A stretch of 64,000 nt of DNA from Haliotis cracherodii (taxonomy: Eukaryota). The position numbers and the translations under genes were made by a program. Below, in pieces: positions 8,084 to 47,133 of the stretch (the first letter of the stretch is position 1; each line of letters opens with the position of its first letter). The notes beneath the pieces were generated by a model. That model did no database searches and was not told where the DNA came from. It saw only the letters and a list, made by a program, of their open reading frames with translations. The stretch spans positions 55,676,001 through 55,740,000 of the forward strand of contig NW_027266286.1 in NCBI RefSeq assembly GCF_022045235.1, given 5' to 3'.

Positions 8084-8120
<37 letters not shown>

Positions 8121-15030: not shown

Positions 15031-17500
15031 ATGAAAGGTCTGAGCAGCTGTCTGCCCATGTGTCTGTGTCTTGCTGTCTGTCTGCAGATCATCTGCGGGG
15101 AAGATACCCAGCAAGTTGACACACCTCTGTCCCGACAAAAGAGGTTTGACTTTGACTTTGACAAAATATTAAAGGGTTTGAAGACGGCAGGCACCTTCGT
15201 AAAGACGGCCACCAACCTTCTTGGCCAAGGGAATTCAACGTTTGGAAGATTTATTAATAGGCTCCCCTTCTTGGATCTGCCAGATGCCAAAAGCATTTTA
15301 GGCCGATTTGATGACATGATGAAGAAAGAGGCCATGACGCCAGTTCAGATGGACCTCGCCCACCAGTTGATGGACGCCCTTAATCATACAGTCTCGCTGA
15401 AGGAGCAATTCGAGGAAAGTAGCGGTACGTTATTAACGAGAACACTCACTTTCGTTAGAGCGGACAAATAGAACGTCTATAGGGACATTAAAATGCTGCT
15501 GGGGTGTGGTTCTGGTGTATGGGGGAAGTCATTATGCTGAAGTGGACTGATCGCTAGCCCAGTAGGTATAGCTTGTGCCGAAGTGTCCGGTTCGATTCGA
15601 TAGATACATGCCACTTCCAATGTGGTATTGCTGGCATATTGTTTAAGGCCATACTCACTCAAATACAACTTACGTGGGAGGACATATGATCGGCAACCAT
15701 ATCTCAGTTTAACAGCTTCTCGTCTCATGAATGACAACTAGTATTTATTTTTCTCGCACAATTTACTTTCAAGTACAGTTTAAAGTACATTGAATGCGAC
15801 TGTAAGTTTAAGATAAAATAATTGGTACTTGTCTGGTTTGACTTCATGCAAAACTATTTCTAAGTACAAAGCAATTATGATTTACACACCGAATCAGTAG
15901 TTGAAACCCGGATACTCTCAGAGCAACCGTCTCTGATAGTTGAAGTCTAAAAGGCAATAGGTTCAAGTGAGAAAGAAGCGGATGAGCGAACGCTAACCAC
16001 ATGGCCACATCCCCGACTGACACAAAGACGTTTATTGATGTCACAGGTGATCGCGGATGACCAAGTGCAAAGTTGCGCCCCTTAGATATATATGTAGGGA
16101 TGGTATGGTTATAGTCAGAAACGTAGCTGATATTGTATCCTTAAATTGCTCATGTCATCACCCACTAGGTCGACTCATCCTGTCACGAGTACTTACAAGC
16201 TTCCGTGATAGGTGAAAGGTTGCGGCGAAGGCGTGAACTCACTCAGTTGCTGTAAACCAGGAAGAATACCATTTGTATTGATGGGGCGGTGGGGTAGTCT
16301 AGTGGTTAAAGCGTTTGCTCGTCACGCCGAAGACCCGGGTTCGGTTCTCCACATGGGTACAAATTGTGAAGCCCATTTCTGGGCCCACTTGCACAAAGCG
16401 ATCCTAGCGCTAAGAAGGTCGTAACTCCCATACTTTAACATAGGCTTACGATAGTCTTAGCGCTAAGATCGCTTTGTGCAAGTGGGCCCTGGTGTCATCC
16501 GCCGTGATATTGCTGGAATATTGCTAAAAGCGGCGTAAAGCCACACTCACTCACTCACTTCTGTTGATTACAGAACATTGTTCTTGTACCTCAACATCCT
16601 TGTTCTAGACCATGTCGTATTATTCATTTTCCTGTTCTTGTAAATGCAACTGTTCTTGTTCAGCTCCTGCTCCTGTTCTATTTTGTTCTTGTTAATGTTC
16701 ATTATTGACCTCCTGATTCAAGAGCCTGTTTCCCCGCTGTCTTTCTTGTTTACTTTCACACTGTTCTTGGTCTCTTTCCTACTCTTGTTCCTGACCTTGA
16801 TCTTATTGTTCCTGATTCTGGTGTACCTCCTCTCGCTCTTTTCAAAGTCGTAGGCTACATGCTATTTGTATATATGTGTTTATCGTCTTCAGGTCAGAAA
16901 CAATTCGATTTGGTCAGTCTGGTGGCGGGACTAAGGACTGCCGGCACTGTGACAAAGACCATCACCAACGTCCTCGGCTTCAGAAACTCCGCTTTCGGAA
17001 GGTTCATCAACCAGGTGCCTTTCTTGGACGTACCTGATGCCAAGAACGTCCTTGAACATGTGGAGAACATGATGAAGACAGAAAAGATGTCAGAGGTCAA
17101 GATGGACCACGCCCATCAGCTGATGGAGGCTCTGCAATACTCCATCCAGATGAAGGAACAACTAGGAGAGGGCAGTGGTAAGTTCTCTTTCAACCAGGTG
17201 TAACTTAAATATTGTCCAAGAAGGAGTTAAACCCAACTCTCTCCGTCACTCAGGAGTAATTGATTGGCCTAAAGAGATTATCGAACTTTGTTGTCTATAG
17301 GAGCTTTTGGTTAGAAAGTAGACTTGCAGTCAGAGAGTTTAATTACGCAGCAAGCTTAAAATGAATATCTGCTGATGAGTTTACTATTTGTTTTAAATAA
17401 TTCGTGCATGGGTTTGTTTGTTACAGGTTCGTCAACATTGCTGCAGACATCGACCTTGATGATGTTGCCGGTCATGTGTGCAGTGAAATTTACCATATAA
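15031..17500 (+). CDS. Gene A: predicted GPI-anchored, furin-processed two-domain amphipathic-helix protein (250 aa)
   Basis: Acceptor tttcag ends 15020. Coding exons 15031-15424 (G|gtacgt), 16893-17177 (G|gtaagt), 17427-17500 (ttacag|...TAA); both introns phase 1; 753 nt total. Signal MKGLSSCLPMCLCLAVCLQIICG; pro EDTQQVDTPLSRQKR; domain 1 FDFDFDKILKGLKTAG...KEQFEESS; domain 2 GQKQFDLVSLVAGLRTAG...KEQLGEGS; tail GSSTLLQTSTLMMLPVMCAVKFTI*. AATAAA at 17676. Confidence 0.85.
16283..16559 (+). mobile_element. SINE family 1, interrupted by a MITE
   Basis: Head 16283-16381 and tail 16489-16559. Confidence 0.85.
16382..16488. mobile_element. 107-bp MITE, probably PIF/Harbinger type, nested in a SINE in a gene A intron
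   Basis: ~33-bp TIR GGCCCACTTGCACAAAGCGATCYTAGCGCTAAGA. CTG target duplication at 16379-16381 and 16489-16491 restores the SINE sequence catttCTGgtgtc. Confidence 0.8.
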
Positions 17501-17883
17501 ATGTGTGGACAAGCATGTTGCCAGGGACTAATTGCTCATGATCAAATTCTCTTTGAGTTGCGTCCCCTTATCAGTGCCAGGATCGGCTTGTCGATTCACG
17601 GAAGAGCTCCTATTATTACCCTCGGCACCATATTTTGTAGTAATCGTCTCGGTGTCCACGCTCTGATATAATTGAAATAAAACTATTTCTCAAACGTTGT
17701 ACTTGTTTAATTAACTATATCACAATTGCCACAGGGTGTGCTGGGGGCAGTGTCGACCCCTCACTGTGAGCGCTAGCCCAGTGCCTGGCCTCTGCGTGTG
17801 TACGCTCTCTACTAGTGAATGAGTAGGTGAGTGTTCTTTAACACCCTGGTCAGCAATAGTCCAACTGTACCTTTAAGTAACCA

Positions 17884-17923
<40 letters not shown>

Positions 17924-17929
17924 TGTTTT

Positions 17930-18139: not shown

Positions 18140-18155
18140 ACGTCGTCAACCAAAA

Positions 18156-18299
18156 NNNNNNNNNNNNNNNNNNNNNNNNNNNNNNNNNNNNNNNNNNNNN
18201 NNNNNNNNNNNNNNNNNNNNNNNNNNNNNNNNNNNNNNNNNNNNNNNNNNNNNNNNNNNNNNNNNNNNNNNNNNNNNNNNNNNNNNNNNNNNNNNNNNN
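18156..18299. other. Assembly gap
   Basis: Run of N. Confidence 1.
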
Positions 18300-22315: not shown

Positions 22316-25300
22316 TAGGAAACCCAAAGACTGTAGCATTCATAGCACAGTCTAATGTGAAGATTAGGAAACTGAAGACTGTAGCACTCATAGCACAGCC
22401 TTATGCGAAGATTAGGCAACCCAAAGACTGTAGCATTCATAGCACAGTCTAATGTGAAGATTGGGAAACCCAAAGACTGTAGCATTCATAGCACAGTCTA
22501 ATGTGAAGATTAGGAAACTAAAGACTGTAGCACTCATAGCACAGTCTAATGTGAAGATTAGGAAACTAAAGACTGTAGCACTCATAGCACAGTTTAATGT
22601 GAAGATTAGGAAACTAAAGACTGTAGCACTCATAGCACAGTCTAATGTGAAGATTAGGAAACTAAAGACTGTAGCACTCATAGCACAGTCTAATGTGAAG
22701 ACAAGGGAACTAAAGACTGTAGCACTCATAGCACAGTCTAATGTGAAGATAAGGGAACTAAAGACTGTAGCACTCATAGCACAGTCTAATGTGAAGATTA
22801 GGAAACTGAAGACTGTAGCACTCATAGCACAGTCTAATGTGAAGATTAGGAAACTAAAGACTGTAGCACTCATAGCACAGTCTAATGTGAAGATTAGGAA
22901 ACTAAAGACTGTAGCACTCATAGCACAGTCTAATGTGAAGATTAGGAAACTAAAGACTGTAGCACTCATAGCACAGTTTAATGTGAAGATTAGGAAACTA
23001 AAGACTGTAGCACTCATAGCACAGTCTAATGTGAAGATTGGGAAACCCAAAGACTGTAGCATTCATAGCACAGTCTAATGTGAAGATTAGGAAACTAAAG
23101 ACTGTAGCACTCATAGCACAGTCTAATGTGAAGATTAGGAAACTAAAGACTGTAGCACTCATAGCACAGTTTAATGTGAAGATTAGGAAACTAAAGACTG
23201 TAGCACTCATAGCACAGTCTAATGTGAAGATTAGGAAACTAAAGACTGTAGCACTCATAGCACAGTCTAATGTGAAGACAAGGGAACTAAAGACTGTAGC
23301 ACTCATAGCACAGTCTAATGTGAAGATAAGGGAACTAAAGACTGTAGCACTCATAGCACAGTCTAATGTGAAGATTAGGAAACTGAAGACTGTAGCACTC
23401 ATAGCACAGTCTAATGTGAAGATTAGGAAACTAAAGACTGTAGCACTCATAGCACAGTCTAATGTGAAGATTAGGAAACTAAAGACTGTAGCACTCATAG
23501 CACAGTCTAATGTGAAGATTAGGAAACTAAAGACTGTAGCACTCATAGCACAGTTTAATGTGAAGATTAGGAAACTAAAGACTGTAGCACTCATAGCACA
23601 GTCTAATGTGAAGATTAGGAAACTAAAGACTGTAGCACTCATAGCACAGTCTAATGTGAAGACAAGGGAACTAAAGACTGTAGCACTCATAGCCCAGTCT
23701 AATGTGAAGATAAGGGAACTAAAGACTGTAGCACTCATAGCACAGTCTGATGTGAAGATTAGGAAACCCAAAGACTGTAGCACTCATAGCACAGTCTAAT
23801 GTGAAGATTAGGAAACTGAAGACTGTAGCACTCATAGCACAGTCTAATGTGAAGACAAGGGAACTAAAGACTGTAGCACTCATAGCACAGTCTAATGTGA
23901 AGATAAGGGAACTAAAGACTGTAGCACTCATAGCACAGTCTGATGTGAAGATAAGGGAACTAAAGACTGTAGCACTCATAGCACAGTCTAATGTGAAGAT
24001 AAGGGAACTAAAGACTGTAGCACTCATAGCACAGTCTGATGTGAAGATAAGGGAACTAAAGACTGTAGCACTCATAGCACAGTCTGATGTGAAGATTAGG
24101 AAACTGAAGACTGTAGCACTCATAGCACATTCTGATGTGAAGATTAGGAAACTAAAGACTGTAGCACTCATAGCACAGTCTAATGTGAAGATAAGGGAAC
24201 TAAAGACTGTAGCACTCATAGCACAGTCTAATGTGAAGACAAGGGAACTAAAGACTGTAGCACTCATAGCACAGTCTAATGTGAAGATAAGGGAACTAAA
24301 GACTGTAGCACTCATAGCACAGTCTGATGTGAAGATAAGGGAACTAAAGACTGTAGCACTCATAGCACAGTCTGATGTGAAGATTAGGAAACTGAAGACT
24401 GTAGCACTCATAGCACAGTCTAATGTGAAGATTAGGAAACTAAAGACTGTAGCACTCATAGCCCAGTCTAATGTGAAGATTAGGAAACTGAAGACTGTAG
24501 CACTCATAGCACAGTCGAATGTGAAGATAAGGGAACTAAAGACTGTAGCACTCATAGCACAGTCTAATGTGAAGATTAGGAAACTAAAGACTGTAGCACT
24601 CATAGCACAGTTTAATGTGAAGATTAGGAAACTGAAGACTGTAGCACTCATAGCACAGTTTAATGTGAAGATTAGGAAACTAAAGACTGTAGCACGTCAT
24701 AGCACAGTCTAATGTGAAGATTAGGAAACTAAAGACTGTAGCACTCATAGCACAGTCTAATGCGAAGATTAGGAAACTAAAGACTGTAGCACTCATAGCA
24801 CAGTTTAATGTGAAGATTAGGAAACTAAAGACTGTAGCACTCATAGCACAGTCTAATGCGAAGATTAGGAAACCCAAAGACTGTAGCATTCATAGCACAG
24901 TCTAATGCGAAGATTAGGAAACTGAAGACTGTAGCACTCATAGCACAGTCTAATGTGAAGATTAGGAAACTGAAGACTGTAGCACTCATAGCACAGTCTA
25001 ATGTGAAGATTAGGAAACTGAAGACTGTAGCACTCATAGCACAGTCTAATGTGAAGATTAGGAAACTGAAGACTGTAGCGCTCATAGCACAGTCTAATGT
25101 GAAGATTAGGAAACTGAAAACTGTAGCACTCATAGCACAGTCTAATGTGAAGATTAGGAAACTGAAGACTGTAGCACTCATAGCACAGTCTAATGTGAAG
25201 ATTAGGAAACTGAAGACTGTAGCACTCATAGCACAGTCTAATGTGAAGATAAGGGAACTAAAGACTGTAGCACTCATAGCACAGTCTAATGTGAAGATTA

Positions 25301-26963
25301 GGAAACTGAAGACTGTAGCACTCATAGCACAGTCTAATGTGAAGATTAGGAAACTGAAGACTGTAGCACTCATAGCACAGTCTAATGTGAAGATTAGGAA
25401 ACTGAAGACTGTAGCACTCATAGCACAGTTTAATGTGAATATTAGGAAACTGAAGACTGTAGCACTCATAGCACAGTCTAATGTGAAGATTAGGAAACTG
25501 AAGACTGTAGCACTCATAGCACAGGCTAATGTGAAGATTAGGAAACTGAAGACTGTAGCACCCATAGCACAGTCTAATGTGAAGATTAGGAAACTGAAGA
25601 CTGTAGCACTCATAGCACAGTCTAATGTGAAGATTAGGAAACTGAAGACTGTAGCACTCATAGCACAGTCTAATGTGAAGATTAGGAAACTGAAGACTGT
25701 AGCACTCATAGCACAGTCTAATGTGAAGATTAGGAGACTAAAGACTGTAGCACTCATAGCACAGTCTAATGTGAAGATTAGGAAACTGAAGACTGTAGCA
25801 CTCATAGCACAGTCTAATGTGAAGATTAGGAGACTAAAGACTGTAGCACTCATAGCACAGTCTAATGTGAAGATTAGGAAACTGAAGACTGTAGCACTCA
25901 TAGCACAGTCTAATGTGAAGATTAGGAGACTAAAGACTGTAGCACTCATAGCACAGTCTAATGTGAAGATTAGGAGACTAAAGACTGTAGCACTCATAGC
26001 ACAGTCTAATGTGAAGATTAGGAGACTAAAGACTGTAGCACTCATAGCACAGCCTAATGTGAAGATTAGGAGACTAAAGACTGTAGCACTCATAGCACAG
26101 TCTAATGTGAAGATTAGGAGACTAAAGACTGTAGCACTCATAGCACAGTCTCATGTGAAGATTAGGAAACTGAAGACTGTAGCACTCATAGCACAGTTTA
26201 ATGTGAAGATTAGGAGACTAAAGACTGTAGCACTCATAGCACAGTCTAATGTGAAGATTAGGAAACTGAAGACTGTAGCACTCATAGCACAGCCTAATGT
26301 GAAGATTAGGAGACTAAAGACTGTAGCACTCATAGCACAGTCTAATGTGAAGATTAGGAGACTAAAGACTGTAGCACTCATAGCACAGTCTAATGTGAAG
26401 ATTAGGAGACTAAAGACTGTAGCACTCATAGCACAGTCTAATGTGAAGATTAGGAAACTGAAGACTGTAGCACTCATAGCACAGTCTAATGTGAAGATTA
26501 GGAAACTGAAGACTGTAGCACTCATAGCACAGTCTAATGTGAAGATTAGGAAACTGAAGACTGTAGCACTCATAGCACAGTCTAATGTGAAGATTAGGAA
26601 ACTGAAGACTGTAGCACTCATAGCACAGTCTAATGTGAAGATTAGGAGACTGAAGACTGTAGCACTCATAGCACAGTCTAATGTGAAGATTAGGAGACTG
26701 AAGACTGTAGCACTCATAGCACAGTCTAATGTGAAGATTAGGAGACTAAAGACTGTAGCACTCATAGCACAGTCTAATGTGAAGATTAGGAAACTGAAGA
26801 CTGTAGCACTCATAGCACAGTCTAATGTGAAGATTAGGAAACTGAAGACTGTAGCACTCATAGCACAGTCTAATGTGAAGATTAGGAGACTGAAGACTGT
26901 AGCACTCATAGCACAGTCTAATGTGAAGATTAGGAGACTAAAGACTGTAGCACTCATAGCACA
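22316..26963. repeat. 48-bp minisatellite (~96 units, 4.6 kb)
   Basis: Unit AAGACTGTAGCACTCATAGCACAGTCTAATGTGAAGATTAGGAAACT(A/G). Confidence 0.97.
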
Positions 26964-30083: not shown

Positions 30084-31608
30084 ATGAAAGGTCAGCTGGT
30101 ATGCCTTTATCTGGCAATATTTCTGCATGTCATCATAGCAGATTCCAGGCAATCTGCAGACAAAGCTCTGTCGCGACCGGAAGGATTTGACTTTCGTGCT
30201 CTACTCCGTGGGTTGAAGTCTGCCGGCTCTCTCGTTAAGGCTATCACCAACATACTAGGATTGAGGGAAACGGATTTTGGTACGTTCATCAACGGTTTAC
30301 CCTTCTTGGATCTTCCTGCCAGCCATCATGCGCTTGCCCACTTTGATGACTTGATGAAGAGAGACAGGAACATGACGGTGATTCAGAAGGCCCGTGTTGA
30401 GAAGCTGATGGCGAAGCTGCAATACAGCATGGAGATGAAGACAGAGCTCGGTACTTGCGATAACGGTAAGGCGCTGTTCTTCCTCCTCCATCTCACAATA
30501 AGTGATGTTCATTTAATGCACACACACACACACACACCCTGGTCATTCCCTTACCTACATAATAGCATATCCAGCAATGGAGTAGTGATATTGGATAAAC
30601 AAAAATTGAAATTGATATTATCTAGCCCTCAGCATGTTGTCTTAATCTTAAATAAAAGCGACAAAATCCTTTCCTCATTCATAAGAAATCTCTGCCAAAA
30701 GCCGATTCCGACTGTATTAAGACCATGTGTTTATAAATAACTACACTTCCCGTGAAGATCAGGGGCAAATAGGTCTTCAGCAACCCATGCTTGCCGTAAA
30801 AGGCGGCTATTCTTGTCGTAAGAGGCGACTAACGGGATCGGGTGGTCAGGCTCGCTGACTTGGTTGATGCATGTCATCGATCCCAATGCCTGGATCGATG
30901 CTCCTGTTGTCAATCACTTGATTGTCTGGTCCAGACTCGATTACTTACAGACCGCCGTCATAGAGCTGTAATATTGCTGAGTGCGGCGTTAAACAATAAA
31001 CAAACAAACAAATAACTAACTAAACAAATGGTGATGACAGATGTTCGGGAAAAGGTGAGCGTATCCTGCCCCACCGGTGGCAGCAACCACAAACCCAAAG
31101 ACTAAATGTAAATATCAAGCTCTCAAGAAAAGAGAGAAACATATTTGCAGTAATAGTGTACAATACTTTAAAATAACCTAGGCGCTATACATTTTATAAT
31201 GTGAAATCTCTACATGTTTAATGGGCAGGTGCCCTCTTTACGAAACAAACTGATACATTGAAATTACTAAACTTGATCCTGATCGAACCTTGATCGATGT
31301 GTCCGACCCTGAGATCCTAATATTTACATGATAAATAGAAATTAACTGTGCGTTTTTAATATCAAGCAATATTACTATAAAAGTCATAAAGGCTATATTA
31401 TCATATGAATTGTTATAGTTCCGTTTTTGTTATTTCCTGGAGTTCCGTGTCTAGGTGTATGGGAATAATGCTTAAAGCGGAGTAAAATCATCCCAAACAG
31501 CCACACTTACTGATAATGTTTTGTCATTGGGTTTCAGGGGCCACGGCGTCAACGCTGCCGATGACTAGTCTGATGTTGCCGGTCATCTATGCAGTGGTCT
31601 CCATCTAG
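30084..31608 (+). CDS. Gene B: single-domain paralog of A, predicted GPI-anchored (150 aa)
   Basis: Acceptor tttcag ends 30073. Exons 30084-30465 (G|gtaagg) and 31538-31608 (tttcag|...TAG), phase 1. MKGQLVCLYLAIFLHVIIA-DSRQSADKALSRPEG-FDFRALLRGLKSAG...KTELGTCDN-GATASTLPMTSLMLPVIYAVVSI*. Last exon is clearly homologous to A's (LMLPV). AATAAA at 31747. Confidence 0.85.
30749..31012 (+). mobile_element. SINE-like family 2, in gene B intron
   Basis: Full copy; flanking direct repeat aaataacta. Confidence 0.85.
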
Positions 31609-34599: not shown

Positions 34600-34880
34600 T
34601 CAGACGTGTGACGTCATGACAACACGGGAGATAACTGAGGAAACTGAGTCACCCTGACCATCTGAGCGGATGCTTCCAACTGTCCTCCCGACACGACCCT
34701 CCTACGACGAGCAAAGAGGCTGTGTCATGAATATATGGCACCACCTACTGAATCACCCACGGAAACAATGTTGCAGAATGACAAGGTTCCCAGCTTCCCT
34801 ATATAATGGTACCGACTCAGTGTTCAACATAGAAGCTGAACCGAAGCTGACCTACCTACAGTTCTATATCTCAGAGAAAG
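34600..34880 (+). promoter_or_regulatory. Promoter and non-coding exon 1 of gene C
   Basis: CRE TGACGTCA at 34609, AP-1-like TGAGTCA at 34645, TATATAA at 34800, strong donor AAAG|gtaagc at 34880/34881. The block is conserved upstream of gene D. Confidence 0.7.
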
Positions 34881-34957
34881 GTAAGCGTTTCTGTTAATAA
34901 TGATATAACATTGTTAAAATATGTCAATAGTTTGCTTAGTACGTCGGAGAGCAGATA

Positions 34958-35212
34958 TTTATTTGTTTGTTTGTTGTTTAACGCCGCACTCAGCAATATT
35001 CCAGCTATATGACGACGATATGTGAATAATCAAGTCTGGACCAGACAATCCAGTGATTGACATCATGATCCACGCAATTGGGATATGATGACATGCATCA
35101 ACCAAGTCCGCGAGCCTGACCACTCGGTCCCGTTCGTCGCCTCTTACGACAAGCATAGTCGCCATTTGCGGCAAGAATCGGTTGCTGAAGACCTATTCTA
35201 CCCCGGATCTTC
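34958..35212 (-). mobile_element. SINE-like family 2, in gene C intron 1
   Basis: Reverse copy; absent from the gene D intron 1. Confidence 0.85.
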
Positions 35213-35864
35213 ATTTACAGATACTTACTGGAACTAAACATGAATACTCTCGTTAAAACATTCTTGAAAATACCCGCCTGCAAAGACCGTCCGAGACTTT
35301 ATATGTGTTTGGCAATATCATTGCTTCAGTCTTCAACAAATTTAGAACTCGAGGAGCCTAGTCGTCTAAGACACGGGACTTGCGTCACTTAGAACTATGC
35401 CTGGATCCTAGGATCGTGGGTTAAAATATCACCGTGATCGTGAGTCTTGCTTTGTAAGCAACATAACGTGCTCGTGGTTCAGCACGTGGTAATTAAACGT
35501 CATCACTTTGTAATGTAGCTGAAGTACTGTTCAAGCAGCATTACACCCAGCCCACTCAAAGGAAAAACAATTAAATAAAGTTATAAACACAAGTGATAGC
35601 GATAGTATGCATGTTTCAGGAATCAACAAATTGAAATTAGTTGGTATCATCCTTCAGCAAATGCCGTCGATATTTCCCGATTGGCCTTCGAATATAACCC
35701 AAAAAAACTTTCACCTGAATATTCAAGTGAACCTTATTTTTTTAGCTTGCAAACTTGGAATGAACTGTTTACTAGTTACACTGCGTGATAAATATATATT
35801 TATTAAAATGCATTTATAAGACGAAATGCATGTTTTATTGCCATCCTCTTAATTCCAAAGAGAA

Positions 35865-36080
35865 CGCCAGAAACCTATGATTGTGGGTTCAAATTCCCTG
35901 TTCGCCCCGATTATGCTTCTAGGTTTGTCAGCACCATACCCGTGCTCGTGGGTTTCACCGAAGTGGTAAACGTCTAAGACCTGCATCGCTTCTGGTTTTC
36001 CTCCCACATCAAGCTGACATGCTGTGATATAACTGGAATTCTGTTAAAAGCGGTGTTAAACCCAACTCACTCACTCACTC
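35865..36080 (+). mobile_element. SINE family 4 (5'-truncated), in gene C intron 1
   Basis: Body and tail match 42110-42316. Confidence 0.8.
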
Positions 36081-36434
36081 TAAATTCCAAATATAGACCA
36101 GTGATAGGCATGTGATATGGATTCCCTTCCCATACGTGAACTATTTACAACTCTGTTATATTCTGTCTTCGGTGTTATGCATAAATTAATGGAAATTTCA
36201 AAGTTGGCATGGGCCAACATGGAAGTAGTGTTGCTTTGTAAATTTGATCAAGTTTACAAATATAAACCCATCACAGTCTACGTCAGACATGGTTCCAAAT
36301 TGGAAATGACACGAGACACATTGCAGTTCAGCAGACTCGATGACCCTTGTTCTGATCACCGTACAACGGAAGTGACTACACGTACATCAACCCACTCATT
36401 TAGCATTACGTTAGAGGAGGCTATCCATGCTTAA

Positions 36435-36806
36435 GTGAGGTGAGGTGAGGTGAAATGGGGTTTAACGTCGCGTCCAAGATTATTGCACTTATATAGCGAC
36501 CTGCATGTACGTGTGTGTGTTTGTGTGGCTGCTTGTACTAGTCCGGACTGATGCCTATTTATAGTGCTAGCCCAATGAGATACCATGCCGCAGTTTAACA
36601 TGAATACCCCACTCAGACACAGTATACTGACTCCGAGCCGAACAGTCCTTGTTTTAGCCCCGTAATGCCGAACGCCAGACAGGGTAGCAACAAGTACCAT
36701 CTTTTATATTTTATTGGTATGATGCGGCCGGGGATCGAACCCCGGACCTTCCGCTCTCCGGGCTCAGTCCGGGCGGAAGCTCTACCACTAGACCACTGCG
36801 ACGGTC
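36435..36806 (-). mobile_element. SINE family 3, in gene C intron 1
   Basis: TSD atgcttaagt. Confidence 0.9.
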
Positions 36807-37409
36807 CAATGCTTAAGTACTTTATATTGTTGAAGTTATTGTTTCCACAACTTCTAAATGTGTCATCACTGAGTTTAAGTGATCAATGCGTGTGATTTTG
36901 CCTCTTACGTCAAATGGAATCGGTTTCTATGGATGATCGAGGCTGCTTATTCTCTGCCGTTGACGTTTTATACCTGAGTGGGTGAGTGAGTGATTGAGTG
37001 AGTGATGTCACTTGGAACAGTAGTTCGGTTATGTCAGCTTAATGTTGGAGAAAGTCCTAGAGGGTCTCCGAGCATAGGTGGTCTGCAAACAAGGGGTCAC
37101 CATCAGGGGGAATCTGGGATTCGAACCCATGGCAGACCTAAATGACGCAAGACTGCTTATGTGATCAGCATCCCGGAAGACTATGTCAAAGTGCCTTCCA
37201 TCGTTTCTTAGGGATCTCTGAACAAAGACCAACTCTTTGTATTGTGAAAGTGCCCTCGGCTATGTTAAAGAAATAATTACTATTATTGTTGTGATTATTG
37301 TTGTGATTTAAAACCAACATTAAACCAAATTTGCGGATTGATATGAAGGGAAAATAAAACGAATAATCATTAATATTGCCATGTAACTTTATATCTCTAA
37401 TTCAGAAAC

Positions 37410-38504
37410 ATGCAGTCCTCCATCGCCCTCCTGTGCCTCGTTGTCCTGGTGTGCGTGCACTCCACCGTGACCGACACCCTGGACACCCAGGACACCCACC
37501 TGTCACGTCATAGACGTGTGAGATCTGTGGGGGACATCGTAGACGGACTGACCACCAACTTCAATAAATATCTGTCATCTGTTTTCGACGTGGACGAGGA
37601 CGACTTCAAGGACATCCTGAAGGCGCTGGGGAAACTGAAGTTGGCGGTACTGAAGGCACTCCTGAATAAATTCTTTGACTTGAAGGACAAACACCACGAT
37701 TTTGGAAGCGCAGAAAATTTCCAGAGAGTTTCCCAAATGATGGAATCCTTGGAGGCAGACATTCAACAGCAGGAAGTAACCAGCGGTGTCACCCAAGACA
37801 CCCAACTGCCCCGCCCTGTGGATGACATCGTGGACGGACTGACCACCAAGTTCAGTAAATATCTGTCATCTGTTTTCGACGTGGACGAGGACGACTTCAA
37901 GGACATCCTGAAGGCGCTGGGGAAACTCAAGTTGGCAGTTCTGAAGGCACTCCTGAATAAATTCTTTGACTTGAAGGACAAGCACCACGATTTTGGAAGC
38001 GCAGAAAATTTCCAGAGAGTTTCCCAGATGATGGAATCCTTGGAGGCAGATATTCAACAGAAGGAGGCAAGCAGCGGTAAGTGTTTTGTACTGTAGTGCG
38101 GCAGTTTTACCGTTATATATTGATTAATTGAATAAATTGAAAAATATTAATTGGATAATACAGACACCAAATATACAATAAAAGCAATGAGCGTTTTGAA
38201 TGTCAACGTCGGTTGAGACAGCTTATTTACAGCAAATATGCATCAATATATCAAATTAATTAACAATCGTTGTAGCCAGTTACCACTATTATTAGGAGAA
38301 TTCACCATAAGATTAACCTGTTTTTTATAATATAAACATTCATGGTAGAAAATATGTTTAACTATGCACATTGTCATCAGATTAACATTATTGACTTGAT
38401 ATATGATGTGTTTTTGTCTTATTTCAGGGGCGCCTACACCTTACGTTACCATGACGTCATTGACAATTCCACTGCTGCCAGTGATAGCTAAAGTTTTAAA
38501 CTGA
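37410..38504 (+). CDS. Gene C: predicted GPI-anchored protein with an internally duplicated helical domain (247 aa)
   Basis: Acceptor ttcag ends 37405. Exons 37410-38076 (G|gtaagt) and 38428-38504 (tttcag|...TGA), phase 1. Signal MQSSIALLCLVVLVCVHS; pro ...DTHLSRHRRVR; two near-identical domains 291 nt apart; tail SSGAPTPYVTMTSLTIPLLPVIAKVLN*. AATAAA at 38545. Confidence 0.87.
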
Positions 38505-39279
38505 TCTGTGAGGAATATGTTATATTGTGTGTTGATGTCAGGGAAATAAAAATTCGTTTTTTAAACATGTCTATGTGTTTTTCTTCTGGTGCTAGAGAAA
38601 TACAAATTTGTGTATTCAATGTACCACGTGAATGAGTTCAGATTAGCTTAAGACAATTTTAAAAAGTTGTTCAGTTATATCACAGCATATCAACTTGATA
38701 TGGGAGGAAATAGAACGATCACATATATGGTGCTGACAAACCTGGAAACGTTATCAGGGTGCATCTGGAATTCGAACCCACGACTATAGTATTCTAGACT
38801 GCCTTGGCGATGCAGTTCTGCACAGTGCATTTTGGCGTTTCAGACGACGGGTCCACCCTGCATGTACACATGATGTTGCAGGGGATTGATAACATAGAGG
38901 AGTATATCACAGCACATCAAACGCTCAACTCAGACACCGTGACACTGTAATTTGACAATAACTGGATATCTGATGTTATATATCGCCAATATTTCACATA
39001 ATGCATATTCATACACATACTGTAAATAATCGAGTGTGGGTTAGATAATCTAGTGATTGATATAGCGAGCATCGTCTACGGTGTACGATGACAAACAACC
39101 AACCAGGACACCGAGCCTGACCTTCCGAAACATTTGGTCGCCAATAACGACCATCCTAAAAGGGATAGATAACCTAGTGATTGATATAGTGAGCAACGTA
39201 TTTGGTGTACGATGACAAACATTTTGTCGCCAATAACGACCATCTTAGGTTACTGGGGGCATATCATTCTATCACATAA

Positions 39280-39879
39280 TTCTTCCACCCCACAAAAGTC
39301 TTTGTTTCCCAAATGAATTGCAGAAGAAATGAGTGAGAGAAGTAGCATCTTGTCACAATTTTCCCCTTCGGCGCTAAACACGCTGTCTTCTATCACCTCT
39401 GAACAGACAGAACCGGCTTCAATCAGTGAAGACGACCCTCTTTCAGTCACGTCGCTGCCAACGACGTCGATCCGAGCCCATTTCGATCTCTGACGACGAT
39501 GTTGCGCTGTCAATAACTGACCTCTGTAAGGTCTGTAAGCCCTTAATAATTGAGCCCCGAGTCGGGCGTCGACTAACCTTATGCCCTAAGGCATTTGTCG
39601 CTGGTGACATCACTGTCAGGAATCGATTCCGGAGATGCAAAGTACGCAAATACTGGTCTTCATTGGGCGTAGTTACCCTGGGTCTTCCTGTTTTGGACCT
39701 GTCTGATGTCTGCCCGGACTGTCTATATCGTTGCATCTGCCCGGACTGTCTATATCGTTGCATCAGGTTAGTTAAAGCAAAACGGGAGCAACCAAAGATC
39801 TAGCACTGAGGGCATGGGTGGCTCCCATCTGTATCATACCCAGGGCCCGCTCATGGTGTTCGGGTGTCAATCGTGGCAT
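39280..39879 (-). pseudogene. Tc1/mariner transposase fragment
   Basis: MPRLTPEHHERALGMIQMG, then SDRSKTGRPRVTTPNEDQYLR..HLRNRF, then HRRQRSKWAR, then VFTD*SRFCLFRGD (degenerate FSDESRF). Frameshifts, stops and a 27-bp internal tandem duplication. Confidence 0.8.
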
Positions 39880-40203
39880 TTCTGTGGTGGGTTGTTTTGT
39901 AAGTGTGAGTGTCCGACGTGACGTCCGTATTATTTATATACCGTTATTGCACGTGCAGTTTCGGCGGTTTAAGCGGCACGTTTTTATCACTTGTTTTCAT
40001 TTCTACAAACATAAATCGCGTCGTGGACGTGTATCACTTTCTGCAAAGAGGAGTGTTGTGTTTGGGCGATGTGTTTTGCATAGTTCAAGTTGTTACCTTT
40101 AATGTGTTTGCAAATCCGGAACACAATACTAGCAACTTATAGCCTGGAAAGATTATGGTTTCACGCAGAAATATTCATTAGCTGTAGCGTTTGGGCAGGA
40201 AAC

Positions 40204-40493
40204 AGTGAGTGAGTGAGTGAGTGAGTTTGGTTTAACGCCGCTTTTAACAGTATTCCAGTTATATCACGGCGTGTCAGCTTAATGTGGGAGGAAAGCCCCA
40301 AGTGATGCAGGTCTCAGACCTTTACCACCTCGGTGAAACCCACGAGCATGGGTATGGTGCTGACAAACCCAGAAACATAATCGGGGCGAACCGGGATTCG
40401 AACCCACAATCATAGGTTTCTGGCATGCCAAAGGGACGCAACTCTGCACAGCGAATCGCGGCGCCTTAGACGACAGGGCCACCCGTGCCCCCG
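40204..40493 (-). mobile_element. SINE family 4 (tRNA-like head with expanded arm)
   Basis: ggggcacgggtggccc...tctaaggcg...ggttcgaatccc plus the shared tail; TSD gggcaggaaaca. Confidence 0.85.
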
Positions 40494-40504
40494 GGCAGGA
40501 AACA

Positions 40505-41075
40505 AACCTTAGTTGTTTGAGACTAAGTTCAAATTGTTTCCATGGAAACACAAGAAATTAAAAAAATACTTAAAATTGACAAATGTGAAAAGGGAATAGT
40601 TGACCATCTGGTCATTGCACAGTTTCATGCAAATATATTTATAAGTATGAGAGTTATAGCTCGAAAACCAAGCCTAGAGTTCTTTGATAGTCGGATTTCT
40701 TTCCATGGAAACGTAACAAAATATAATTTAGAAATTCAAAAAAGCAAAAGGTACCAGATCAGCTGATGAACAATGCATATGCCAAGTTTCTTTGAAATAT
40801 GTAAACGGTTTTCCGAAACGAATCCTGCACTCGTAGGTAGGAATTGTTTCCATGAAAAAATATATAATACTAATTCAAACATTTAATAATAGCTAAAAGG
40901 ACCAGTTCAGCTGATGACCAGTCCATATGCTAAGTGTCGTTGAAACCATTGTACGGTTTGCAAGTTATGGCTCGGAATAGGATAGGAACGCAAACGCAAA
41001 TGCGTATATATACACACATATGAATAAAGGTGCATGTGAACGGGGTATAAAGCGCCGCAAGCAGTTGTGCAGAGT
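40505..41075 (+). mobile_element. Second HINE-like element, related to 43036-43600
   Basis: Repeated tttccatggaaac, aaaagg..ccag..cagctgatga and catatgc.aagt modules; ends near cggggtataaa. Confidence 0.45.
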
Positions 41076-41487
41076 TGCGTCTCTCGAGACATATGATCGT
41101 TGTTTCGAATTTCAGATTCACCCTGATTTTGTTTCCAGGTATCTTTTACTTTTCACACACCCACTCACCCACTCACACTGTTTCCATGTGTCTAGTTGAG
41201 ATACACAGAGTTATGTCCCTTCTACCATGTGACACTCGTTTCTGCATTCGTCACCACTCGCGTGTTTCCGTAACCTACAAGAAGCCTGCCCAAGGATGAC
41301 ACGAATTGGTCATGAACCAAAATGCAACTCGAGATATGATGCAAAATGACTGCCAGAAGTAGAATTACTACATCCATACGATGTTAACAATGTTACAGTG
41401 TTTTATTTTTGTTTGTTTCTTGTTTTATTGCTTGAAAAAGCTGTCATTGTACTACGAATGTACACCGCATACAGGTAAACCTTTTTG

Positions 41488-41656
41488 GAGTGAGTGAGTG
41501 AGTTTGGTTTTACGCCGCTTTTAGCAATATTCCAGCAATATCACGGCGGGGGACACCAGAAATGGGCTTTACACATTGTACCCATGTCGGTATTCGAACC
41601 CGGGTCTCCGGCATGCCGAGCGAACGCTTTAACCACTAGGCTATCCGACTGCCCCT
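41488..41656 (-). mobile_element. SINE family 1
   Basis: Reverse copy. Confidence 0.85.
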
Positions 41657-42045
41657 CTATTTTGGAAAACAGCTCATAATGTGTAGAAGAAATTACATGA
41701 AAAAGTTTGACTTGATCATGAGGTAAAACGAAAAGGAAAGCACTTTATACATTATGAAGAGGTCATGACTGTCAGTGTACAGGAATGAAGGATGTGATGG
41801 CGCATCTTTCCATATCATCCAACTCCCCATCCGCTACCTACAAGAAGCCACGTCCCCTTTCTCGACGGCTGCGAGTCGAAACAGCACAGGCTGATCAGAG
41901 TACAACATCAATATAATCCCGTTTATGAAATTAAATACGGTAACGCGGGTATGCTTAAATTGTTGGATTGTCAGTTTCGGACCCGATGTATACGAATAAC
42001 ATATTTGAGGTGATAGAATTTAGGTTGTTACTTGTAGGATCATGT

Positions 42046-42316
42046 TGGGGTACTGGTGGCCCAGTCGTCTAAGGCGCCGCGATTCGCTGTGCAGAGTTGC
42101 GTCCCTTTGGCACGCCAGAAACCTATGATTGTGGGTTCGAATCCCGGTTCGGCCCGATTAAGTTTCTAGGTTTGTCAGCACCGTGGGTTTTACCGAACTG
42201 GCAAACGTCTGAGACCTGCATGACATCGGGCTTTCCTACCACATTAAGCCGACACGCCGTGATATAACTGTAAAGTTGTTAAATGCGGCGTTAAACCCAA
42301 CTCACTCACTCACTCG
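42046..42316 (+). mobile_element. SINE family 4
   Basis: TSD tgtaggatcatgtt. Confidence 0.85.
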
Positions 42317-43035
42317 CTGTAGGATCATGTTCGTTCACATTCAGAAAAAAAGCTCGCTTGACAGTGACGTACTTGTCATTGAGCAATAATTCTTCGTGGA
42401 TTGTATATGTATTTTGATAATACATCAAACGTTAGAGCACGCATTAACGCTAAAGATAGAATAACAATGTTTGTACCTATCAAAGTTTTGCTGTAAAATA
42501 TTTACATATTTGTATGTGACATACAAAGGGAGCTAATGCTTTCCGTAAATGCGATAAAACAGAAGTCGGTGTCATACGTTAGATCACGACAATGTTCTCA
42601 AATACTGGAATTTGTTGTGTGGACGTGTAAGTATTTAAAGAACAGGGGCGGGATCTGTTCAGGTCATTCCTGTATTTTTGACGACACTCTTCAATCATTT
42701 TAAAATTGAACAAGAGTCATCCGAAGATGACATATCCCTCCGACGTGGCATGTCGGTAAACTGTGTGTACCTTCAAACGTATTTAGATTGGCAAGGAAAT
42801 CTTTTTCCTTGATGCCAAAACCAGGAATATAATGAAGGTTATTAAATATTGGTTCATGTAGCTCACTTTCTGATGATCTCATGAAATTGTAATAACAATA
42901 ACTTCGCAGATTCGCATATGAATAGCTCTGTAGTAGCCTCATGACACAAAGGCATAAAGAGAATGTACTAGATTATGTAGCTCACATCACATATAGTATA
43001 TGATATCGGTAAATAGTACACCTTAGAATTATATG

Positions 43036-43600
43036 TCAGGGGCTACAAATTAAAAAGATTAAAATCTGTAAATAACAAACTGCACTACTAGTGAACATGA
43101 TTGATATGTGCATAAAGTTTGGTGAATCTCTGTCACATGGTTTAGAAGAAATGCTCCAGACGAGGACATTACCCTACTAGTACGTTCATCAATTTTCAAT
43201 TTAAATTGAAAAAAAAAGAAAAAATCTGTTAATAGCAAAGGCACCACTACATAACCTGCTTGATAGGTGTAAAAACTTTTGAGAAGCTAAGTTGTATGGT
43301 TCGGGAGATAAGGTCCGGACAAGAGCACTACCCTCAAATTTCCAAAGTTCATAATATTTCCATGGAAACGACAAAACCATAAAATTCGAAAAATCTCTAA
43401 ATAGCAAAAGGTAATTCTACTGAGCCTGATTGCTAAGTGTACCAAGTTTTGTGAAGCTAGGTTGTACGGTTTAGGAAATATGCTCCGGACAAACAATGAC
43501 TACAGACGGACAGACGGACAGACGGACGGACGGACAGACGGACATACTGATGGCTATATATAACAAATGTAATATTTATTTGCGGCGGTGTAAAAATTAC
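43036..43600 (+). mobile_element. Non-autonomous Helentron/DINE-1-like (HINE) element
   Basis: Internal ~170-bp degenerate repeats (aatagcaaa...tccggacaa), (GACA/GACG)n microsatellite at 43502-43543, then gcggcggtgtaaaaat terminus. Confidence 0.55.
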
Positions 43601-44989
43601 ACGATAAGCCGCTTCAGTATCAGTTTCAGTGAGCGACATCTTCCTGTGATTTACATGTACAGCAACTGTCCAAAGTTAATTCAGTACGTACAAGGAACGA
43701 ATTGATTATTTATGATTTAACAGAAACATTTGATAATTTACATGTATGTTAATAACAACTGTGTGAAACTATAGACCATTTATTCTATTAGTGTGAAATT
43801 GTTACTAATATATGACACAAAATAGAAAAATGGATTCTCTTAATACAAGTACTAATACAGTTTTCAAATCTAAATATTATATTAGGCATAAAAAGGTAAA
43901 AGCAACAATACTATTAATGCAATCATATTATTGGTTTAGAAAATCATTTATAGACCTGGAGAGGATTAGATATAATGGCCTCACTAAATTTATTATTTTT
44001 CTAGTGGAGAAAAAGAAAAGTTCTTTTCTTTCTGGTCATCTCTACACTGACTGTTGAAGGAAAATAATTTGTTGAATGTACCTTAATGTACCTTAATGTG
44101 CCTTAATGTACCTTAATGTGCCTTATCTATAAATGTTAAGTATAAACCTGTATTGACGATCTATATTGTTTCCAAATTGAATGCATATCAAAACCTATGC
44201 ACGTATATTGTGATGTTCTTATTAGCTTTCATTTTACATGTACCTTTTTTTTAATACAGTATGTACTTATATATACACAGCTATCAATTTCAGCAATATG
44301 TAATTATGCATAATAAATGTATTGATTCATATTAAGTCAAACATAATATGCGTACTGCATCAATAATGTAACATTTGTTGCTTGCCTGTACCTGGAGATA
44401 CAGGAAATTAAAAATAAACAAACTTATGAGGGGTAAAATGGTGTTTTACGGGGAAATAAGAATACGACACAAATGCAAAATTATATACAAAGCGTGCCCA
44501 TAAGATTGTTTTAAACGATCGACCTTTTTAGGAGGCGGGAAAGGGCCAATGCACAGGAAAAAAGAAACAGTGAATTATTTATAGATTGATTCGTCAGACC
44601 TATTGTCCATACCTTAACAAAACAAATACAATTAGATTGCTTCTGCTACTGAAAATCGTCTTCCGGAGGCAAGCGTATCCACTAGCCTGTATCAAAGACC
44701 TTGATAAAAACGCTAGTGGACGCTCTTGCCTCGGGGAGATGCTGAAAATACGCACAATGATATTGCATAATCACCATCACCCAAAATAACTCGTTTGATT
44801 ATAGTCTTGTCATTTGTGCAGACAGATATAGAGCTGTATCATGCTATGTTGTTATTGAGGGTCGACATTACGACTACCCGCGTCATGAAGATGAGACTCC
44901 GTTTCCTAATGAGTAACATCTCCACGCTTTGTCACATCTTAGGTTATCTATAGTTAAGTCTCCATGATCGCCCTGTCATCCCCGCTATC

Positions 44990-45348
44990 AGGGTCGTGAC
45001 GTCATGACAACACGGGAGATAACTCTTGTTGTTATTGTCCTGTACTGTAAAGATCAAACCTGACACCGAAATAAATAGGTCACAGGAAGTTATACGTGAA
45101 CTAGAAGGGAAGCCCGCTCCACCTGAGCGGATGCTTCCAATTGTCCTCCCAAATGACACGACCCTCCTACGACGAGCAAAGAGCAAAGAGGCTGTGTCAT
45201 GAATGGCACCACCTACTGAATCACCCACGGAAACAATGTTGCAGAATGACAAGGTTTCCAGCTTCCCTATATAATGGTACAGACTCAGTGTTCAACATAG
45301 AAGCTGAACCGAAGCTGACCTACCTACAGTTCTATATCTCAGAGAAAG
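44990..45348 (+). promoter_or_regulatory. Promoter and non-coding exon 1 of gene D
   Basis: CRE at 44997, TATATAA at 45268, donor AAAG|gtaagc at 45348/45349. The TATA-to-donor segment is near-identical to that of gene C. Confidence 0.7.
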
Positions 45349-45767
45349 GTAAGCCTTTCTGTCATTAATATTATGACATTTTATTCATTTGCATTTCTTG
45401 TATGGATAAGATATTCAGATGCAGATTTTTGCCTAAAGTACAAATAATATTTTTATCGTTGAAACAGGCTATCAGTGCTTCAGTACTTTTATTATATAAT
45501 TATTATTATAAATATTGATTTTGCTTTCAATGTGTTTTCGCGAACACCTGGTATTATTACTGATTTTCAGTGATTCATGCGTAAAGCTTTCACCTTGGCT
45601 TTGCTTTTATGCCCTTAGGAATCAAATAATGTTTGATATATTACTATTGTTGTCACTTAAAATCAACCTTACACATCCAGAATATATTTTAATTATAAAT
45701 ATTGCGGATTTATATGTTGGGAAAATAAAAACCCATAAAACTTAAGTCTTATCTCTAATTCAGAAAC

Positions 45768-47133
45768 ATGCAGTCCTCCATCGCCCTCCTGTGCCTCGTT
45801 GTCCTGGTGTGCGTGCACTCCACCGTGACCGACACCCTGGACACTCAGGACACCCACCTGTCACGTCATAGAGGGGTGAGATCTGTGGGGGACATCGTAG
45901 ACGGACTGACCACCAAGTTCAATAAATATCTGTCATCTGTTTTCGACGTGGACGAGGACGACTTCAAGGACATCCTGAAGGCGCTGGGGAAACTGAAGTT
46001 GGCGGTACTGAAGGCACTCCTGAATAAATTCTTTGACTTGAAGGACAAGCACCACGATTTTGGAAGCGCAGACAATTTCCAGAGAGTTTCCCAGATGATG
46101 GAATCCTTGGAGGCAGACATTCAACAGCAGGAAGTAACCAGCGGTGTCACTCAGGCCACCAAACTGTCACGCCCTGTGGATGGCATCGTGGACGGACTGA
46201 CCACCAAGTTCAGTAAATATCTGTCATCTGTTTTCGACGTGGACGAGGACGACTTCAAGGACATCCTGAAGGCGCTGGGGAAACTGAAGTTGGCGGTACT
46301 GAAGGCACTCCTGAATAAATTCTTTGACTTGAAGGACAAACACCACGATTTTGGAAGTGCAGAAAATTTCCAGCGAGTGTCCCAGATGATGGAAAAGTTG
46401 GAGGCAGATATTCAACAGCAGGAGTCATCCAGCGGTGAGTATTTTGTAGTTCAGTCTAGAAGTATTACCGCTATTAATCGATTCCAAAAAATAGCGATTG
46501 GATAATACAGATACAAACATATTACGAAACCATTTCTATAATTGTTTGCATGTCAAAGTTGTTTGAGACAGCCTATTTCTATACCAGATGACATTAACGG
46601 ATGTTTGTAAGCAAATATGCATCAATATATCAAATTAATAAATAATCGTAGCAAGTAACCACTTATATTAGAAGCCTATAAGATTAACATGAGGTGTTTT
46701 ATGACATGAGTGAGTGAGTGAGTTAATGCTTTACGTCATCACATCGGCAATATTTCAGCCATATCGTGACGAGTTATGACATGAAGATGCATGGTAGAAA
46801 ATAAGCTTTAACTATGCATATTGGTAACAGTATTAACTTGTTCTTTTGTTTGGTTGTTGTGTTTCTTGGTTTGTTGTTGAACGCCGCAATATTCCAGCTG
46901 TATGACGGCGTCTGTAAATAATCGCGCCTGAACCAGACAATCCAGTGATTGACAAGATGAGCATCGATCCACGTCAATCATGGGTTGCTGTTGACCTGAT
47001 TCTTCAAGAGTACACTAATTTGGAATGATATGTGATGTGTTTTTGTCTTATTTCAGGGGCGCCTACACCTTACGTTACCATGACGTCATTGACAATTCCA
47101 CTGCTGCCAGTGATAGCTAAAGTTTTAAACTGA
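45768..47133 (+). CDS. Gene D: close duplicate of gene C (247 aa)
   Basis: Exons 45768-46434 (G|gtgagt) and 47057-47133. About 10 aa differences from C; last coding exon identical to C. AATAAA at 47174. Confidence 0.87.

Follow-up and report, generated by a model that had tools for sequence, protein, structure and literature searches.

Why do some genes of an abalone cluster carry two or more copies of one small domain on a single chain, and why is the processing motif that usually precedes the first copy missing before the others? These questions were addressed in a window of 64,000 nucleotides from Haliotis cracherodii (contig NW_027266286.1, positions 55,676,001 to 55,740,000), that is, the whole stretch of DNA analysed. 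The five genes modelled there (A–E) agree with the first-pass annotation, including its placement of single-domain genes B and E in the same cluster. Translated products of genes A–D matched H. cracherodii RefSeq proteins letter for letter (A, XP_071113724.1, here P0013; B, XP_071114338.1, P0009; C, XP_071114499.1, P0006; D, XP_071113904.1, P0015), and gene E differed from H. rufescens P0010 at 5 of 146 residues. Support for splicing included spliced contigs from related organisms. The features are as follows.

15031..15424, + strand: gene A coding exon 1, with signal peptide, short pro-region, RQKR and helical domain A1; phase-1 donor at its end
15133-15144, + strand: RQKR site within gene A coding exon 1
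16893..17177, + strand: gene A exon 2, domain A2; 285 nt, 95 codons, symmetric phase 1-1
17427..17500, + strand: gene A terminal exon, coding for a spacer of small residues and a hydrophobic tail (predicted GPI signal)
30084..30465, + strand: gene B coding exon 1, signal peptide and a single A-type domain; dibasic site absent (SRPEG|FDF)
31538..31608, + strand: gene B last exon, predicted GPI signal
34654..34880, + strand: region upstream of gene C, with a 5' untranslated exon whose start is not fixed; donor after 34880
37410..38076, + strand: gene C coding exon 1, signal peptide, site, domain C1, linker and domain C2
37506-37523, + strand: gene C RHRRVR site
37780..37817, + strand: gene C repeat junction, old exon end and read-through donor remnant, then copied pro-region
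38428..38504, + strand: gene C last exon, predicted GPI signal
45119..45348, + strand: region upstream of gene D, with a 5' untranslated exon (donor after 45348); homologous to the gene C region
45768..46434, + strand: gene D coding exon 1, signal peptide, RHRGVR (45864-45881), and D1 and D2 at offset 291
47057..47133, + strand: gene D last exon, predicted GPI signal
55193..55559, + strand: gene E coding exon 1, signal peptide, RSRR site and a single domain; beyond the range of the earlier finding
55951..56024, + strand: gene E last exon, predicted GPI signal

The 5' intron of gene C extends to 37405, and a contig from run X14 splices 34654-34878 to 37404-37592. The upstream region of gene D is 90.6% identical (blastn) to 34658-34912, and the gene E domain shares 61-62% of its residues with those of C and D.

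In gene A, the second domain occupies its own exon, flanked on both sides by GT-AG phase-1 introns, and the coordinates and phases given for it in the first-pass annotation were reproduced, as was the junction: RQKR|FDF precedes domain 1 and GQKQ-FDL precedes domain 2, so that A2 starts with G-QKQ-FD at the place where A1 has R-QKR-FD. Synonymous sites between A1 and A2 are saturated, and the mutational route taken by gene A is therefore unreadable; upstream of A2, the search for intron-remnant homology gave no meaningful DNA alignment. Genes C and D hold both domains in one exon. Self-comparison recovered the reported in-exon duplication at an offset of 291 nt, with 273 (C) and 271 (D) matching positions against 146-150 at the next-best offset, and the linkers read TQDTQLPRPV (C) and TQATKLSRPV (D), as described. 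The single first-domain site quoted for both genes holds for C (RHRRVR) and not for D (RHRGVR). The copy upstream spans 306 nt when its site is included, against 291 nt for the downstream copy, which lacks the 15 nt spanning the dibasic site (37510-37524 in C, 45868-45882 in D); although the two cores agree at 93-94% of positions, exactly these 15 nt are missing from the linker. The junction preserves the bases of the exon end followed by GGTG, a 4-nt match to gene D's own donor, and the remnant in gene C (G|GTGTCA) retains three of six consensus positions versus five to six in used donors. Since the old splice donor is retained there, A and C/D may have undergone one kind of tandem duplication, resolved in two ways. 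The claim that the doublings arose by different mechanisms thus stands for the present exon layouts and does not extend to the mutational mechanism.

Nucleotide identity is 98.5% between C1 and D1 and 94.2% between C1 and C2, which points to a single doubling event followed by gene duplication. Signs of later conversion were found in an identical run of 126 nt between D1 and D2, reached in 0 of 10000 shuffles, in another of 102 nt between C2 and D2 (p 0.007), and in a synonymous Thr codon common to pro-region and linker within each gene rather than by position; the runs between C1 and C2 (p 0.09) and between C1 and D1 (p 0.30) were not significant. We considered whether C and D might be uncollapsed alleles, which is unlikely, as identity across their aligned flanks is 74-91% and the flanks differ in their insertions; the presence of two C/D-like genes in H. 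rufescens and three in H. rubra also argues against it. Depth over the C/D coding bins was zero in DNA run X20, of which about 1 in 100 was read, and the run was uninformative. Splicing from an internal donor of C/D had been suggested by an X14 contig connecting a domain end to the start of the gene D last exon (joint 46141-47056); this was rejected because the base at 46142 differs and contig ends branch there, and the joint may represent the terminal unit of another copy.

A domain-level phylogeny of 41 copies, from which the single-exon translations P0012 and P0014 were excluded (as from all counts below), separated A/B from C/D/E. Grouping the A-first and C-first domains in one clade, as expected of a single ancestral two-domain gene, was rejected (AU p 7e-96). 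The tree thereby supports the earlier claim that the domain multiplied independently in the A and C/D lineages, at least twice. A third origin, for an 80-aa type found in other species, is not secure: one clade of all non-first C-type domains was modestly rejected (p-AU 0.025), a result that conversion can mimic. Gene B as the source of A2 corresponded to a weak branch (85/31), and an all-A clade without B was not rejected (p-AU 0.64).

Across four Haliotis species, family copy number spans 1-3, and the 13 multi-domain proteins comprise six with two copies and seven with three or more (one a fragment). Domain spacing is 95 aa in the A type, 97 aa in the C type of H. cracherodii and H. rufescens, and 80 aa in the C type of H. 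rubra and H. asinina, a linkerless third junction type in which the last helix joins straight onto the next first helix; the three types differ by at most 17 residues. At the protein level, three-copy A orthologues gain exactly 95 residues. A Physella hit of 828 aa (P0021, one of seven hits) was dropped, its best single-domain score being 5.2 bits against at least 122 for all others, and a scan of 8000 candidates for longer homologues (390-2000 aa) returned none, which is weak evidence.

No RxxR, KR or RR occurs between the first and last domain in any of the 13 multi-domain proteins. Counted by junction, the motif is present before 16 of 21 first domains versus 0 of 20 internal junctions (Fisher's p 2e-7), a value that overstates the contrast, as the 20 junctions descend from just two or three events; at event level, with a background absence of 5/21, the chance of its being missing is about 0.06 for two of two and about 0.014 for three of three. 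The five first domains without it include the H. rubra E orthologue and single-domain B, whose missing dibasic site the first-pass annotation had overlooked, and tethering cannot account for the roughly three losses of the site among first domains. The contention that the protease site disappeared with each doubling therefore holds as a description of all 20 junctions, and its reading as selective removal is weakened by these first domains and by the 80-aa unit, which has no linker to carry a site.

GPI anchoring and cleavage were judged by simple hydropathy and motif rules rather than a dedicated predictor. All 18 proteins scored showed an 11-residue hydropathy peak of 2.5-3.6 in the first 45 residues, consistent with a signal peptide, and 17, the exception being P0020, had a hydrophobic C-terminal tail (15-residue hydropathy 1.76-2.63, 0-1 charged residues in the last 20), preceded by small residues and a spacer and followed by no cytosolic segment. 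On these rules the products are likely GPI-anchored at the cell surface, and a furin-type enzyme is predicted to remove the N-terminal pro-peptide.

The domain is confidently predicted to be a helical bundle that folds alone: the single E domain was modelled with a pLDDT of 89 and a pTM of 0.76 (all five models above 85), and its helices are amphipathic, with moments up to 0.5-0.7. The best tandem-A model contained two helical units joined by a linker with pLDDT below 50; it was weak (mean pLDDT 63, pTM 0.44; the other four of five models at 37-41; 8 sequences) and yields no contact data. A homodimer prediction for the E domain, in which the alignment was not used, scored 0.01 against a mark of 0.32 and speaks neither for nor against a dimer.

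Searches for relatives gave little. Pfam returned nothing at cut-off for six family exons or 15 alignment members; the abalone lysin/sp18 family was not among its matches at E up to 1 (exons) or E up to 0.05 (alignment members), nor did a lysin chain appear in the PDB sequence searches, whose best E values were only 0.1 and 0.03. With the E model, Foldseek against the PDB gave no match at E up to 0.001, which indicates neither a new fold nor an exclusion, and a viral structure library likewise gave none. VIA-align placed a dynein stretch at the top (Z 8.3, rmsd 2.4, 82 aligned), tied with unrelated helical proteins and below the level that is meaningful for helical bundles, and the best ESM Atlas feature scores, 0.82 and 0.81, were at chance level. 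Literature searches by LOC identifiers, peptides and accessions found no paper on the family, supplements (possibly with abalone proteome tables) being outside their scope. Saposin-like proteins and apolipophorin are small helical bundles that interact with membranes or lipids, and the abalone domain resembles them in its roughly 85 residues, four to five amphipathic helices and secreted pro-protein. Unlike saposin-like proteins, which carry six conserved cysteines, seven of the eight window domains have none (B has one), and there was no Pfam match and none among the fold-search matches listed; the resemblance is a lead only.

We marginally favour the reading that this tandem cluster encodes proteins with a signal peptide, one to three domains of about 85-95 residues and a predicted GPI tail, in which the copies likely stay joined and would raise valency or height. 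The lack of an internal dibasic or RxxR motif makes the repeats unlikely furin-released units, so that the copies likely remain on one anchor. Each multiplication would have been a tandem duplication of a segment that started in the pro-region of the large coding exon and reached the intron behind it. In gene A, enough intron may have been copied for the donor to stay in use, a new acceptor being recruited at the P4 Arg position; in C/D, merely 2-4 intron bases would have been copied, the donor decaying and the unit being read through. Unequal exchange and gene conversion would keep altering copy number and homogenising units, and internal sites would have been purged or never copied, presumably because cleavage would shed the added unit. 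The domain itself would be a surface binding or coating module, functional also as a single copy; nine full-length single-domain members persist, and repeats are hence not required.

It is rather improbable, though likelier than the two alternatives below, that repeat number is a by-product of a recombination-prone cluster, in which unequal crossing-over generates tolerated units and the site is absent through breakpoints and a labile pro-region, tethering not being favoured. Copy number does vary among close relatives (H. rubra P0004 has three copies and H. asinina P0011 one, with near-identical N-termini; H. rufescens P0016 has two and P0017 three), conversion tracts exist, first domains also lose the motif, the 80-aa unit begins downstream of the site, and in A the P4 Arg coincides with the splice junction. 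Such neutrality is hard to square with A2, which is kept in four species and retains 56% amino-acid identity to A1 despite synonymous saturation, with the A-type proteins of full or long sequence, all five of which are multi-domain, or with a dN/dS of 0.2-0.35 among C/D copies (more exactly 0.21-0.34); moreover, the sole large change in the otherwise 93-94% identical C/D unit removes the site.

The first-pass annotation had gone further than joined copies, proposing that selection favoured a covalent dimer and taking this as a hint that the domain acts as an oligomer or needs extra reach. That the tandems fix a non-covalent dimer would suit the amphipathic helices and the missing internal sites, oligomer-subunit fusion being a known route to repeat proteins (on beta-propellers, see PMC6805158 and PMC4735018). 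We consider it unlikely: forms with three copies occur as often as those with two (seven of 13 relatives have at least three), units of 80, 95 and 97 aa with three junction types hardly fit one geometry, one copy of the domain is predicted to fold well by itself, and the tandem model leaves the linker unresolved. The dimer idea is thereby weakened, and the "extra reach" half of the proposal fits better than the "oligomer" half. Least probable is a polyprotein cut by a non-furin protease, freeing soluble units while the last stays anchored. Each junction type does keep one basic residue where a cut might fall (Lys in GQKQ, Arg in LSRPV, Arg in QQRD), the A and C/D linkers are predicted or likely flexible, and near-identical units recall repetitive polyproteins (PMC3079579). 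The dibasic/RxxR motif is nonetheless absent at all 20 junctions, the three types share no motif, and the 80-aa unit offers no loop to cut. Arg-Pro is also a poor site for trypsin-like enzymes.

Joined copies on one anchor would set the family apart from the nematode polyprotein allergens (ABA-1), in which, according to PMC3079579, a K/R-x-K/R-R motif separates and frees every unit. Both are secreted precursors with tandem, similar, small helical units and a basic processing motif before a unit; the abalone proteins differ in the motif-free junctions, the predicted GPI tail at the chain end, the low unit number and the lack of a conserved cysteine pair, with no sequence or fold match found. 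VERL, the abalone egg-coat protein, is likewise extracellular, with tandem units of which the internal ones are homogenised; according to PMC3567151, however, its roughly 22 units measure about 150 aa each and adopt a beta-sandwich ZP-N fold, unlike the few all-helical units with low inter-copy dN/dS seen here, and no homology was detected. Symmetric-exon module duplication, as outlined in PMC3632108, is matched by A2, whose phase 1-1 exon shares homology with the one before it, and not by C/D, whose units share one exon without an intron. Even A2 departs from that model: as A1 lies within a composite exon together with the signal peptide, a new acceptor was required for A2.

Domain repeats within a protein, symmetric exons and concerted evolution are all familiar. 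Less usual is to find them in a compact, recent and replicated form within a single gene cluster, next to single-copy controls and with the fate of the processing site readable at each junction, a mirror image of cleaved polyproteins. The cluster encodes an apparently unstudied and probably lineage-specific family, with no Pfam model, solved relative or paper found, and the payoff is for now evolutionary and annotational rather than mechanistic. In a run from one related organism, contigs pile very deep on the C/D exon, and some abalone tissue may thus carry the family as a major surface protein. Three routes to tethering can be proposed, namely an exon of its own, read-through of a dead splice donor, and linkerless helix-to-helix fusion. 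It is possible, though doubtful, that in this undescribed, cysteine-free helical surface family tethered multimers evolved three times under selection for uncut units, copy number tuning the avidity or reach of a highly abundant coat protein specific to one tissue. If so, the alleles and orthologues that naturally carry one, two or three copies would provide a ready test of why repeat proteins originate.

The window carries five related genes (A–E), all on the + strand and each made up of one large coding exon followed by a short final one, with coding introns that are GT-AG and phase 1 without exception. Eight domain copies were recovered (A1, A2, B, C1, C2, D1, D2 and E, the digits denoting first and second copies), and scanning the six frames with the family profile gave no ninth. 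Once spliced, genes A, B, C and D each yield exactly the sequence of a RefSeq Haliotis cracherodii protein; the E product departs at 5 of 146 positions from a protein of H. rufescens. The motifs reported in the first-pass annotation were present at the genes named, and the layouts were as it had described them: A2 is encoded by a separate 285-nt exon of phase 1-1, whereas C and D hold both copies within one exon, at an offset of 291. Upstream of the site, by which we mean the dibasic or RxxR furin-type motif between pro-region and first domain, this offset is 306, so that copy 2 lacks 15 nt spanning the dibasic site. The single-domain gene B also lacks a dibasic site. An assembly gap of 144 N (18156–18299) lies between A and B, downstream of the last exon of A. 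The first intron of A contains a tRNA-like short interspersed repeat (16283–16559), which is split by a 110-base palindromic insert (16381–16489) and has many further copies elsewhere in the window. The other elements annotated were:

58879–59334, − strand: exon of an unrelated secreted pro-protein, adjoining the cluster
about 22330–26960: long satellite
about 4115–5850: long satellite
about 49290–51900: long satellite
about 7100–10400, − strand: degraded sequence; a motif resembling reverse transcriptase, read by eye, lies near 7520–7550

The pro-protein exon encodes, in order, a signal peptide, a long pro-region, RQKR and an amphipathic-looking helix, with a possible phase-1 donor at its end; it gave no Pfam or PDB match and no likeness to the family profile, and further exons were not found. 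By eye, the first two satellites repeat every 48 and 34 bases or so, respectively; the satellites yield long spurious ORFs. The degraded stretch may be LINE-like.

Relatives were gathered by word-indexed searches, cluster look-ups and an HMMER pass over 1.84 billion representatives, which gave 24 proteins in total (7 hits from HMMER alone). True members with a species name come only from Haliotis (cracherodii, rufescens, rubra and asinina) and, where recorded, those within each species are compatible with a single contig, as expected for one cluster. A Physella match was dropped after profile scoring as a sum of weak matches. Among orthologues of A, those of cracherodii and rufescens show two copies, against three for rubra and asinina. 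The C-type proteins of rufescens share the C/D linker and contain two or three copies; those of rubra and asinina also contain two or three but are joined differently (IQQ|RDILDG), apart from P0011 of asinina, which has one. Unit lengths across the family are 95, 97 and 80 residues. P0020 is a divergent single-domain member without the GPI-like tail, and P0022–P0024 form a further divergent single-domain subfamily outside the window, where tblastn gave no match to them. The relatives P0004 and P0011 have near-identical N-termini, yet three copies and one, respectively, and the added units of P0004 match those of its paralogues, a pattern that suggests that genes exchanged units or that the array shrank back to a single copy.

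In a phylogeny built on 41 domains (22 proteins), A-type and B domains fell apart from those of C/D/E. Forcing A-type and C-type first domains together cost 97 log units (p-AU 7e-96), which excludes one ancestral two-domain gene and upholds the proposal that doubling arose separately in A and in C/D. We count C and D as one event because, for domain 1, the copies at the same position resemble each other most. For rubra and asinina, a third origin appears likely: their junction differs from the C/D linker, the nine cracherodii and rufescens copies cluster together (support 96/94; 91/93 in a second tree), and a single clade of all non-first C-type copies was rejected (p-AU 0.025). Gene conversion, of which signs were seen in two of the four pairs tested, can mimic this tree pattern, and a 17-residue deletion could convert one C-type junction into the other.

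The first-pass annotation had also ascribed the doublings to different mechanisms; the layouts do differ, but the underlying route may be the same. At the C/D junction, the reading frame runs on through the old exon end and four bases matching D's own donor, after which the pro-region resumes. This points to a tandem duplication whose copied piece began in the pro-region and stopped just within the intron; intron loss is a less likely account of the same junction, at which the donor remnant scores 3/6 against the consensus, compared with 5–6 for used coding-exon donors. A single 15-nt deletion could turn the C1 form into the C2/D2 linker, as could the loss of three codons from the LSRPRR|SV form found in P0004 and P0011. 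A may have arisen by a like event, with a longer intron piece and an acceptor newly recruited where the P4 Arg had been, although saturation of A1–A2 synonymous sites obscures this route.

RxxR, KR or RR occurs at 0 of 20 internal junctions, which derive from two or three events only, and in 16 of 21 first domains. At the start of A2, the splice junction takes the place of one Arg and Gln that of the other; the 80-residue unit has no linker. The C/D units are 93–94% identical apart from the stretch that had carried the site, which we suggest is the best single sign of selection against it. Internal sites are missing, as the first-pass annotation had it, but selection against them, though suggested by these sequences, is not established. 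The motif has also disappeared from first domains on about three occasions (B; H. rubra E; P0005/P0008/P0018). The latter three, C-type proteins from H. asinina and H. rubra, carry a Thr/Val-rich pro-region insertion and lack a dibasic site ahead of their first domain. In D, the first-domain site (45864–45881) has Gly for the Arg of C (RHRGVR), leaving a minimal RxxR, and may be eroding.

The genes are alive, as judged from dN/dS (0.21–0.34 among C/D copies and 0.14–0.19 against E; Nei-Gojobori, few differences) and from spliced contigs. Four sequencing runs, from organisms other than the source and presumed to be RNA, were mapped on 30000–47300 alone, with A and E outside that range. In one contig from run X14, gene C's upstream untranslated exon is spliced to the coding exon of that gene, and a second X14 contig joins a domain end to the last exon; the linker region has coverage in runs X12, X14 and X16. 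Summed word depth, a poor measure of expression, reached 62,405 and 45,652 for X12 in two C/D coding bins but was 0 for B; X14 and X16 gave 5–362 in those two C/D bins. We take this only to hint at abundance confined to particular tissues.

The AlphaFold2 model of the E domain (15 sequences; pLDDT 89, pTM 0.76) comprises helices 2–11, 13–21, 25–35, 40–55 and 63–84, and no meaningful fold, Pfam, PDB or Atlas match was found. For full-length A, the best of five models has two E-like units and a low-confidence linker; the other four failed. Placed on the E model, the 80-residue junction runs from the last helix into the next first helix without a loop, a geometry that would fit a rod more readily than a dimer folded back on itself. 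Hydropathy is the basis for predicting the signal peptides and the GPI-like tails. The pro-protein would be secreted with loss of the signal peptide, the short pro-peptide would also be removed in most members, and the product would likely be GPI-linked at the cell surface, its helical bundle likely binding or coating something extracellular.

With the motif missing from internal junctions, a furin-type enzyme probably does not set the units free, and a polyprotein cleaved by another protease seems very improbable. The covalent tandem dimer of the first-pass annotation, acting as an oligomer mimic, is unlikely, as copies range from one to three and units have three lengths, which is mainly why a string is preferred; the added reach it had also proposed fits this reading. 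Tolerated drift within a recombining cluster is conceivable, though we would not expect it.

Abalone VERL is a known case of homogenised repeats (PMC3567151), duplication of symmetric exons has ample precedent (PMC3632108) and abalone acrosomal proteins are covered in PMC9022041 and PMC6952181. The nematode ABA-1-type cleaved polyproteins (PMC3079579) are the reverse of this family, whose units would stay uncut, and the family belongs to none of the ABA-1, VERL or symmetric-exon groups cited. Searches by gene id, accession, peptide or keyword found no description, most subscription papers and all supplements being beyond their reach. This is a real, replicated domain multiplication in an undescribed lineage-specific family, which works like other extracellular repeat proteins; on balance we lean towards added units that would stay attached to the anchor, increasing valency or height.
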